From NCBI RefSeq assembly GCF_024502345.1, contig NZ_JALDNN010000001.1: a stretch of 64,000 bases of DNA. One strand, written 5' to 3'. Both the position numbers and the translations under genes were made by a program. Below are positions 53,932-56,726 of the stretch, piece after piece. This DNA is from Escherichia coli (GTDB lineage: Bacteria > Pseudomonadota > Gammaproteobacteria > Enterobacterales > Enterobacteriaceae). The notes below the pieces were generated by a model. The model did no database searches. It saw nothing but the letters and a program-made list of their open reading frames with translations, and was not told the DNA's origin. Within the stretch, counting starts at the first letter, position 1. Every line of letters starts with the position of its first letter.

Positions 53932-54869
53932 TTTTATTGCCCGCGCGTTAACTCCCGCGCGGGTAATTGCTCCATCCATTGCATAAACACCTGCGGCGGC
54001 ATCGCCTTCGCAAAAAACCATCCCTGGCAATAGCGCACGCCGCGTTTGCGCAGCCAGTTAACCTGCTCCTCAGTTTCGACGCCTTCAGCGATCGTTTTTA
54101 ACCCCAGGCTGTGCGCCAGCTCGATGATGTGTTCCGCAATCAAATGACTGGTTTTGTGGGTGGTCAGCGTTTCAACAAACGATTTATCGATTTTCAAAAT
54201 ATCGACATTCAATGATTTAAGGTTATGCAAGTTAGAGTAGCCAATACCAAAATCATCAATTGCCACTTCGTAACCAGCCTGGCGGAAAGCCAGAATAATC
54301 GGCGTCATTTTTTCGACATCAAGAAATGCATGCTCAGTCACTTCAAATTTAATTTGCTGCGGACGCACCGCGTATTGCTCTGTTTTCTGATTGATTCGCG
54401 CTATCAACCGTGACGTATGAAAATCGGAGGCCGACAGGTTAATAGAAACATAGCGATCGGCATGTGTTGCCAAGTACGCGCCCAGATCGCGGAAGACATT
54501 ATCAATAACATAATCAGTTATCTGTTCTATCATCCCCTCCTTTTCTGCCAGCGGAATAAACTCTGCCGGATTCATTATTTGCCCCTGCTCACCAAGCCAA
54601 CGTAACAACGCTTCAGCGCCGATACATTTTTCTGTTTTGATATCGATTATTGGCTGGTAATAAAGACAAAGTTGATGTTTTTCGAGGGCGCGTTGCAATT
54701 TACGTTTGGGAGATAAATAGTTTTGTCGAATACGTAGCCAGAGTAATAGCAGAACAAGACTCCCCAAAATACCGGCGGGCAACGCAAAAATAAGATGATT
54801 ATAAAAATGGGTTATAAGACGTTGATATGAAGTCGCAACAATGGCTGCAATTGGGCGTTTTGTCGAATA

Positions 54870-54878
54870 AACTGTCGC
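54870..54878. repeat. IS1 target-site duplication, copy 1
   Basis: aactgtcgc immediately flanking the IS1 end. Confidence 0.8.
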
Positions 54879-54893
54879 GGTAATGACTCCAAC

Positions 54894-55397
54894 TTATTGA
54901 TAGTGTTTTATGTTCAGATAATGCCCGATGACTTTGTCATGCTGCTCCACCGATTTTGAGAACGACAGCGACTTCCGTCCCAGCCGTGCCAGGTGCTGCC
55001 TCAGATTCAGGTTATGCCGCTCAATTCGCTGCGTATATCGCTTGCTGATTACGTGCAGCTTTCCCTTCAGGCGGGATTCATACAGCGGCCAGCCATCCGT
55101 CATCCATATCACCACGTCAAAGGGTGACAGCAGGCTCATAAGACGCCCCAGCGTCGCCATAGTGCGTTCACCGAATACGTGCGCAACAACCGTCTTCCGG
55201 AGCCTGTCATACGCGTAAAACAGCCAGCGCTGGCGCGATTTAGCCCCGACGTATCCCCACTGTTCGTCCATTTCCGCGCAGACGATGACGTCACTGCCCG
55301 GCTGTATGCGCGAGGTTACCGACTGCGGCCTGAGTTTTTTAAATGGCGGAAAATCGTGTTGAGGCCAACGCCCATAATGCGGGCGGTTGCCCGGCAT
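54894..55397 (-). CDS. insB: IS1 transposase InsB portion
   Basis: 167-aa ORF inside IS1. Confidence 0.9.
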
Positions 55398-55591
55398 CCA
55401 ACGCCATTCATGGCCATATCAATGATTTTCTGGTGCGTACCGGGTTGAGAAGCGGTGTAAGTGAACTGCAGTTGCCATGTTTTACGGCAGTGAGAGCAGA
55501 GATAGCGCTGATGTCCGGCGGTGCTTTTGCCGTTACGCACCACCCCGTCAGTAGCTGAACAGGAGGGACAGCTGATAGAAACAGAAGCCAC
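55316..55591 (-). CDS. insA: IS1 InsA (DNA-binding repressor, zinc-finger)
   Basis: 91-aa [27 protein letters not shown]... Confidence 0.93.
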
Positions 55592-55646
55592 TGGAGCACC
55601 TCAAAAACACCATCATACACTAAATCAGTAAGTTGGCAGCATCACC

Positions 55647-55655
55647 AACTGTCGC
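55647..55655. repeat. IS1 target-site duplication, copy 2
   Basis: aactgtcgc immediately flanking the other IS1 end. Confidence 0.8.
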
Positions 55656-56726
55656 ATATAAATAGCCATTTCTTTGTACGGTTAAATCCTTCAAATGAAT
55701 CAGCGGAGAAAACGTTGCTGCCGAGGCCTCTTTGCTTAACGAGAAAAAGGTTTTCGTCACCGTATCATACACACCCCATTGCAATGTCGGGTCATCAGAC
55801 ATCACTTCACTCCAGAAGAGAGGGTTGATAACCGCCACATAATTTCCCCGCTGCATATAGGTCATTTTATAGCCAGAGAAAAAAGGCGTATCGCGGTAAT
55901 AATAGATAGAAACGTTAGGTTCACGCTTATAATCGGCCGGTGCAATCGTATAGCCGTTTACAGGCGCTATCAGCGATGAGCATAAAAAATGGTTATCACG
56001 GGCATAGATCAATTCATTAATATAAAGATAGCCACGAATAATATTCAACATTCGCTTTTGATGGGCTGGAGTGCAAACTTGCCCCTGATAGCGTTCAGCT
56101 GCATCGCTCACTAAATCTGCCTGGCGAATGACCAGCTCGGATTTATCCAGTGCCAGTTGAGCAAAGGTTCGGAGCTGATTATTCACTTCTGATTTTGCCC
56201 AAAGGAAGGCAATCCATAGCGAAAGAATGATGGGAAAGAGAACTAAAAAGATAATGCCCGGCAACGCCAGTAATTGGTGTCGTGCACGATGACTCATTGC
56301 TATCAATTTCCTGCCTGTTTATACCCGGCCATTGCAAGGTGAAAACCCTGGGTACCGACGTCTTTAGATAAATCTTACGGTATAAATAGCACTTTTGCCT
56401 GATTTGAAATTGATACCTTTCTAATCGTCACCTGGATGAAAATAATTCATTGATATTCAAAATTAATTTCCTACAGGAATGCAGAGGCGGCGGGAAGATA
56501 TGCCCTTAATGCCACTGAAAAACCACATAATCTGTACAGCAATAAAAGTCACGGCCTAATATGGCTAACAAACAATCAATTGTGATATAGTTCACAAAAT
56601 TAATGAAACAAACAGAGTGTTTCATTTTTGTGTTCTGCAAGCCCCGCGATAGCCAGAGTGTACCACGCCTCCCGTGAACAACGCCGCGCTGTCCAGGGCA
56701 TCGGCTCTTTTCAGAGGAATTGTTTG

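Follow-up and report, generated by a model that had tools for sequence, protein, structure and literature searches.

An IS1 insertion with its 9-bp target duplication splits the c-di-GMP phosphodiesterase gene pdeC in Escherichia coli

The turnover of c-di-GMP in E. coli involves 13 phosphodiesterases overall, and PdeC stands beside four other enzymes of the CSS-EAL type (PMC5897775). The EAL domain of PdeC is inactive when it is alone, without TM2, and TM2-mediated dimerisation is needed for activity (Herbst 2018, PMC5897775). Insertion sequences have been described at other points of the c-di-GMP network. In strain 55989, an IS1 lies between ycdT and pgaA and has been proposed to create outward promoters (PMC4287979); the ability of IS1 ends to create outward or hybrid promoters is cited in that same article (Prentki 1986, cited in PMC4287979). 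In Shigella flexneri, an IS110-family element has inserted into dgcE (PMC11327459), and the six phosphodiesterase genes that are intact in S. flexneri 2457T do not include pdeC (PMC13320778). At pdeC (yjcC) itself, two laboratory-evolved BW25113 lines carry IS1A-bounded duplications that end in the gene (PMC12625342). Our literature search found no published description of IS1 in pdeC. In this study, we have analysed a 64-kb stretch of E. coli DNA (hereafter the window) in which pdeC is interrupted by IS1, and we have compared this allele with the other IS1 insertions found in the gene across complete genomes and public contigs.

An IS1 copy inside pdeC

The insertion is real, and an assembly artefact is excluded because the same junction recurs in independent public assemblies. 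On the minus strand, four ORFs follow each other in series, namely an ORF of 225/228 aa (start MSHRARHQ), insA, insB' and an ORF of 282 aa, the last of which has its end two bases from the stop of the convergent gene soxS. Reading of the sequence and a script both delimit an element of 768 bp (Table 1), and the first-pass annotation, which had placed there a complete IS1 with both terminal repeats, insA and insB, stands in its coordinates as well as in its features. Terminal inverted repeats are indeed present, as the repeat finder reports imperfect repeats of 23 nt that match at 18 positions. The 9-bp direct repeat, which had been described as intact, reads AACTGTCGC in both copies; it was reported by the repeat finder independently of the script, and two fixed stretches of this length would agree by chance with a probability of 4^-9, or ~4e-6. 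The InsAB' protein scores 243.8 bits against the NCBIfam model NF033558 ("IS1 family transposase", cut-off 100), and the element shows 100% identity over 768 bp to no fewer than 24 records, from chromosomes and plasmids, that carry the annotation "IS1-like element IS1B family"; its identity to a K-12 IS1 copy is 99.9%. Length and repeats, the frameshifted InsAB', a duplication of 8-9 bp and nucleotide identity thus all place the element in the IS1 family. The sequence requirements for transposition are all predicted to be intact in this copy, which is the only IS1 in the window.

Removing IS1 and one copy of the repeat (53934..54878 joined to 55656..56297) gives 1587 nt, that is 528 codons and a stop, with no internal stop, and a script thereby reproduced the single frame that had been proposed earlier. 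In a gapless alignment with an uninterrupted counterpart, the annotated PdeC of E. coli NCTC9064, the restored protein is identical at 524 of 528 positions (99%), and the gene order soxR-soxS-pdeC-yjcB-ssb-uvrA is common to the window and NCTC9064. Pfam finds the CSS-motif domain at residues 39-243 (E 2.9e-52) and EAL (PF00563) at 273-505 (E 4.7e-71). The restored ORF has Cys75 and Cys106, the latter in the motif FLCSS, peaks of hydrophobicity around residues 14-27 and 249-256, and the EAL signatures EALLR 303, EVTE 393, DDFG 422, KIDK 443 and EGVE 479. The naming of the interrupted gene as pdeC is thus borne out by domains, identity and synteny together. No NCBIfam equivalog scored above its own cut-off for the restored ORF, the best match across TM2 and EAL being PRK10551 (180 bits, cut-off 461), and therefore the assignment to PdeC rests on orthology; this result is no argument against orthology, because the NCBIfam matches include no model named for PdeC. 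Compared with the consensus of ten intact alleles, the restored ORF differs only at residues 309, 348 and 403, and the residue found at each of these positions also occurs in intact alleles. As all three are polymorphic positions, and as the two halves are without frameshift, stop or private substitution, neither half of pdeC shows decay. The gene is AT-rich, with a GC content of 44.7% against 51-57% in most of its neighbours.

Table 1. Features of the interrupted pdeC gene in the window, followed by other IS1 insertions in or near pdeC (orientation relative to pdeC)
Feature or strain	Position	Strand or orientation	Remarks
IS1, complete, IS1B-type isoform	54879..55646	-	order IRL-insA-insB'-IRR; co-directional with pdeC
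IS1 IRR	54879..54901	.	end adjoining the EAL fragment
IS1 IRL	55624..55646	.	overlaps promoter-like match 55612-55639 (-)
Target-site duplication, left copy	54870..54878	.	AACTGTCGC, 9 bp
Target-site duplication, right copy	55647..55655	.	AACTGTCGC, 9 bp
insA	55316..55591	-	91 aa, GTG start
insB' frame	54894..55397	-	167-aa ORF; TAA stop 54894-54896 in frame with downstream pdeC codons
A6C motif	55334..55340	-	programmed -1 frameshift; shift gives 232-aa InsAB' transposase
Chimeric 5' pdeC ORF	55620..56297	-	225 aa: residues 1-217 (TM1 + CSS, Cys75, Cys106) + GDAANLLI
pdeC 3' fragment	53934..54878	-	codons 215-528 + stop; end of periplasmic loop, TM2, EAL domain
O121 201805972	codon 217	co-oriented	
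S1	codon 208	co-oriented	
042	codon 290	co-oriented	
2452	codon 80	co-oriented	
T16R	~200 nt upstream of pdeC	co-oriented	
98218	codon 28	inverted	
2017.18.02CC	codon 111	inverted	
FDAARGOS_1281	codon 215	inverted	strain 2900: same one-piece alignment
E166	codon 261	inverted	
GCU-H1	codon 290	inverted	
WP2-S18-ESBL-08	codon 431	inverted	
MS 115-1			rearranged copy (flipped-IS1 query)
23CRST007	10-18 nt upstream of ATG		flipped-IS1 query
E138	soxR-soxS spacer		flipped-IS1 query

Carriers of the allele and other IS1 insertions in pdeC

At least 23 public contigs, which differ in their flanks and come from 26 collection blocks (NCBI, ENA and Logan samples), encode the junction-specific chimeric protein of 225 aa, and because of this we conclude that the allele is circulating and not private to the source strain. 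Some carrier contigs are identical or near-identical to the window, such as L012, without a mismatch over 1689 bp, and L011, with 5 mismatches in 3172, and others have different flanking haplotypes, some of them substantially different from the window, mainly in uvrA. On one contig of 1.25 Mb (L006), the position of IS1 agrees with that in the window to the nucleotide, and so does its orientation; the left duplication copy of L006 reads AACTGTTGC, diverged by 1 nt, and its IS1 differs from the window copy at 8 positions (IS1A-type versus IS1B-type). Either gene conversion or a second insertion would explain the difference between these two copies. The chimeric protein has been deposited as E. 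coli PdeC (CAK1212733.1), and the 3' fragment as the E. coli proteins CAK1212739.1 and CSS89415.1. None of the complete RefSeq E. coli genomes has the exact allele of the window; the identity of the window's flanks to complete E. coli genomes does not exceed 99.6%, B1-type strains (O121/O103/NCTC9064) being the closest. An origin from Shigella, to which this upper limit had pointed, is unsupported, given a lone IS1 copy in the 64 kb and the entry of the exact fragments in the databases as E. coli proteins. A deletion of rpiB-als was considered as a lineage marker and set aside as uninformative, being common to 1,568 genomes.

When IS1 with its pdeC flanks was used as an occupied-site query against 5,426 complete E. 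coli genomes, in a search that joins only same-strand pieces, 201 genomes were found to have IS1 in this part of pdeC in one orientation. Most of this count appears to be one successful allele found repeatedly, that of the 042 type, whose signature accounts for 33 of the 40 best matches. A second query in which IS1 was flipped found 14 additional genomes, falling into about nine classes in the other orientation. The orientation bias suggested by the first six sites, all co-oriented with pdeC, was rejected on this result; it is an artefact, because the search joins only pieces of the same strand. By mapping representatives from these 5,426 genomes, we arrived at about 12 sites of independent IS1 insertion within the coding sequence of pdeC, with more just upstream. 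The alleles mapped from the first query occupy different sites, and each has a duplication of its own; the duplications of pdeC::IS1 alleles other than that of the window measure 8 or 9 bp. In FDAARGOS_1281, an inverted IS1 that is 97.1% identical to the window copy occupies exactly the target used in the window, with the same AACTGTCGC duplication; as it is a different IS1 isoform and is inverted, its insertion is necessarily independent. The target at codon 290, GATTATTG, has likewise been used in both orientations. As controls, queries of identical design (300 bp + IS1 + 291 bp) were built in crfC and yjcS, which are neighbouring non-essential genes. In a single orientation and over the same 5,426 genomes, crfC gave 17 genomes in ~8 classes and yjcS gave 13 genomes in ~10 classes, numbers similar to, or above, the ~6 and ~9 classes per orientation of pdeC.

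Consequence of the insertion and alternative readings

IS1 interrupts pdeC at codons 215-217, so that the periplasmic CSS sensor domain is parted from TM2 and EAL, and the gene as it stands is no longer a single uninterrupted PdeC ORF. The 5' ORF continues for 8 residues encoded by IS1 (GDAANLLI) and meets a stop inside IRL, with TM2 and EAL absent. On the other side, the TAA of insB shares the reading frame of pdeC and precedes Ala215 by five codons. From this stop to TTG-247, the 3' fragment has no ATG or GTG, and its first canonical in-frame start is TTG-247 itself (at 54782), which lies within the hydrophobic core of TM2 (~243-262). No purine-rich ribosome-binding site precedes TTG-247, and no Shine-Dalgarno-like sequence is present between the stop and TM2. 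A consensus scan of the element, which is a crude method, found no outward promoter at IRR; its only promoter-like match is the insA site in IRL. Weak translation of TM2+EAL is conceivable by two routes, from the near-cognate codons ATT 224, ATT 227 and ATA 236, or by reinitiation past the in-frame insB stop.

In the model that we favour, an intact IS1B-type element would have entered pdeC by transposition, at a preferred target that is AT-rich, and duplicated its 9 bp, AACTGTCGC. Upstream, the ribosome would translate eight IS1 codons before the stop, leaving a TM1+CSS stub of 225 aa without a catalytic domain. Downstream, the TM2+EAL part would be deprived of promoter, ribosome-binding site and start codon, and it would sit behind an element that is historically known to be polar. 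The outcome would be the loss of one redox-controlled c-di-GMP phosphodiesterase. As TM2 is preceded by neither an ATG nor a GTG start, and as the scan gave no outward promoter, a pdeC null allele is the likeliest outcome, and we hold this loss of function to be highly probable. An effect on c-di-GMP turnover and on the biofilm matrix is a reasonable expectation from Herbst 2018 (PMC5897775), but is likely to be subtle: since E. coli has four other CSS-domain phosphodiesterases, the phenotype would probably be modest even for a true null.

Different histories of this allele have to be weighed against the one just given. The first-pass annotation had taken the perfect duplication to imply a recent insertion, and in its strongest form this means that IS1 jumped very recently in the source strain alone. 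The perfect repeat, the undecayed halves of pdeC and the fully intact IS1 would agree with such an event; however, the 18 duplicated bases hold almost no clock information, so that the dating power of a perfect 9-bp repeat is negligible, and the one copy at this site with a diverged duplication (L006), as well as the carrier contigs with different flanking haplotypes and the independent, inverted hit on the same target, count against it. The inference of recency is thus unsupported, and a strain-private event appears improbable. A reading which we consider very improbable is that pdeC has been inactivated convergently by adaptation, or that it is an exceptional hot spot for IS1. This would be favoured by the number of independent sites in and just upstream of the gene, by the 201 genomes, by the two exact targets that were each hit twice, by the duplications ending in yjcC in the laboratory-evolved lines and by the AT-richness of the gene. 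Yet the 201 genomes appear to owe most of their number to the 042-type signature, and the matched controls, crfC and yjcS, yield comparable numbers of distinct events per orientation; on these controls we conclude that pdeC is not enriched for IS1 events, and its status as an exceptional or selected target was rejected. The target preference of IS1 is well known and fits the reuse of an exact site, and such reuse, in both orientations, is what is expected of this preference rather than of selection.

Another reading is a change of function in place of a loss, namely that read-through from IS1 would produce a sensor-less, constitutively active TM2+EAL phosphodiesterase which lowers c-di-GMP. 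It is conceivable because the insertion coincides with a natural processing point: DegP/DegQ generate a highly active fragment of 33 kDa with its N-terminus at about amino acid 215, and a TM2+EAL clone beginning at Ser231 is highly active too (Herbst 2018, PMC5897775). IS1 has cut at almost exactly this point and is co-oriented with pdeC, the insB stop is in frame only five codons ahead of Ala215, and two more co-oriented insertions lie nearby, at codons 208 and 217. Against this, TTG-247 would truncate TM2, the insertion at codon 208 (S1) is in a different frame, the identical site holds an inverted IS1 in other strains, orientation is unbiased overall, and the IS1 sites are scattered over codons 28-431 of pdeC. 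We rate a deregulated fragment as very unlikely, because its start codon and its promoter are absent. The more elaborate proposal, in which AACTGTCGC would be a hot spot at the DegP/DegQ point from which co-oriented reinitiation or read-through yields an active TM2+EAL phosphodiesterase that rewires c-di-GMP signalling, is slightly less likely still. A null allele is therefore the outcome that we retain.

Significance and relation to known systems

Our results call for the source strain to be annotated as a probable pdeC null, which would be without one enzyme among E. coli's five CSS-domain c-di-GMP phosphodiesterases. As can be inferred from Herbst 2018 (PMC5897775), its curli and cellulose matrix could rise modestly, under reducing or deep-biofilm conditions. 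This event belongs to the many ordinary IS1 insertions scattered across non-essential E. coli genes; the allele is already present and automatically annotated in public assemblies, and the disruption of c-di-GMP genes by insertion sequences is documented. Its significance beyond the annotation of the strain is small. Two lessons are nevertheless of more general use, namely that a perfect target duplication is no evidence of recency, and that apparent "recurrent hits" on one gene require matched controls.

The insertions of strain 55989 (IS1 between ycdT and pgaA) and of S. flexneri dgcE are likewise instances of insertion sequences remodelling the c-di-GMP network in natural isolates; they concern different genes, and the outward promoters proposed for 55989 are without a counterpart found here. 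With the IS1B-type element of E. coli K-12 and many plasmids, the copy in the window shares its 768 bp, the imperfect repeats of 23 bp, insA, the A6C -1 frameshift, the 232-aa InsAB' and a 9-bp duplication in AT-rich DNA, its location being the sole difference. With PdeC (YjcC; PMC5897775), the interrupted gene shares TM1, the CSS domain with Cys75 and Cys106, TM2, EAL, the length of 528 aa and the neighbourhood; here, in contrast, it is split at codons 215-217, which uncouples the sensor part from the catalytic one and leaves the latter without a start codon. The other natural pdeC::IS1 alleles involve the same gene, the same element family and duplications of 8-9 bp, but they are independent events, which differ in site, orientation or isoform (90-99% identity to the window copy).

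Target sites in pdeC used more than once

The site that holds IS1 in the window has been entered on another occasion. In FDAARGOS_1281, an IS1 of a different isoform (97.1% identical to the window copy) lies in inverted orientation exactly at this target, with a 9-bp duplication identical to that of the window, and is thus an independent insertion into the same site. Strain 2900 gave the same one-piece alignment as FDAARGOS_1281, in which the site mapping was done. The codon-290 target is also occupied in both orientations (042 versus GCU-H1).

In another E. coli contig (L006), site and orientation are those of the window, but the element is of IS1A type with 8 differences from the window copy, and the left copy of the duplication differs at window-equivalent position 54876. 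Gene conversion would explain these differences from the window, and so would a second independent insertion.

In E. coli 042, the IS1 that splits pdeC at codon 290 is an isoform with only 90.5% identity to the window's IS1. Its alignment signature recurs in 33 of the best 40 matches of the occupied-site query (the site itself being mapped in 042), and this allele is probably both the marker of a large lineage and the one present in most of the 201 genomes with IS1 in pdeC.

Coordinates of the features compared (L-numbers denote loci from other genomes or contigs)
Feature	Source	Position	Target or duplication
Target site of the window's IS1	window	54870-54878
Inverted IS1 in pdeC	FDAARGOS_1281 (L015, NZ_CP070134.1)	1801-2568	AACTGTCGC
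IS1 in pdeC	L006 (GCA_963577445.1, contig CAUZHK010000002.1)	window-equivalent 54879-55646	AACTGTTGC (left copy)
IS1 at pdeC codon 290	042 (L003, NZ_CP042934.2)	1575-2342	GATTATTG
pdeC-IS1-pgi junction	MS 115-1 (L020, NZ_CP146665.1)	1-2300
IS1X4-type element, soxR-soxS spacer	E138 (L023, NZ_AP022351.1)	1500-2270	GAGGAATTA
IS1 upstream of pdeC	23CRST007 (L021)	2461-3228
IS1 upstream of pdeC	T16R (L004)	2653-3420
AbiGi-family gene	L009 (Logan ERR10436895)	1061-1882
soxS and pdeC stop codons	window	53929-53936
uvrA segment (~1 kb)	window	58229-59294
rpiB-als junction	window	24300-24507
yjcF	window	47916-49209
Longest yjcF ORF	window	48207..49208

Flanks of the carriers and other features of the window

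In carriers that share the window's pdeC::IS1 junction, the uvrA segment departs from the window sequence at 19-44 sites, but pdeC, yjcB and ssb are almost unchanged, which points to recombinant uvrA alleles in these carriers. The yjcB-ssb interval is an integration hot spot for defence islands (PMC11728103); it contains an AbiGi-family gene in L009, T16R and 23CRST007, and in one of the strains with this gene the chimeric PdeC fragment of the window is also present.

Elsewhere in the window, ~208 bp stand in place of the ~6.8 kb with rpiB and alsRBACEK found in NCTC9064. With the same junction present in 1,568 of the 5,426 complete E. coli genomes, this absence is a common polymorphism. The longest yjcF ORF has 333 aa, the 5' part of its frame being full of stops; since its orthologue in NCTC9064 carries an annotated frameshift, the window's yjcF may likewise be a pseudogene.

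IS1 around pdeC and soxSR

Because soxS (+) and pdeC (-) are convergent with stop codons just 2 bp apart, their transcripts must overlap, and antisense transcription that runs into soxS could be altered by an IS1 within pdeC. In MS 115-1, the 5' two-thirds of pdeC is joined directly to pgi by an inverted IS1, which indicates that an IS1-associated rearrangement or deletion took the pdeC 3' end and soxSR from this position. The E138 element lies inside the short divergent soxR-soxS promoter spacer and could affect superoxide-response regulation. Upstream of an otherwise full-length pdeC, IS1 is found 10-18 nt from the ATG in 23CRST007 and ~200 nt from it in T16R, whose pdeC annotation shows an internal stop.

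A laboratory parallel comes from the evolution of BW25113 under amoxicillin, in which two independent lines carried IS1A-bounded ampC duplications (385,606 and 385,084 bp) with the other endpoint in yjcC, the other name of pdeC (PMC12625342, Table 1): IS1-associated endpoints arise in this gene in real time.
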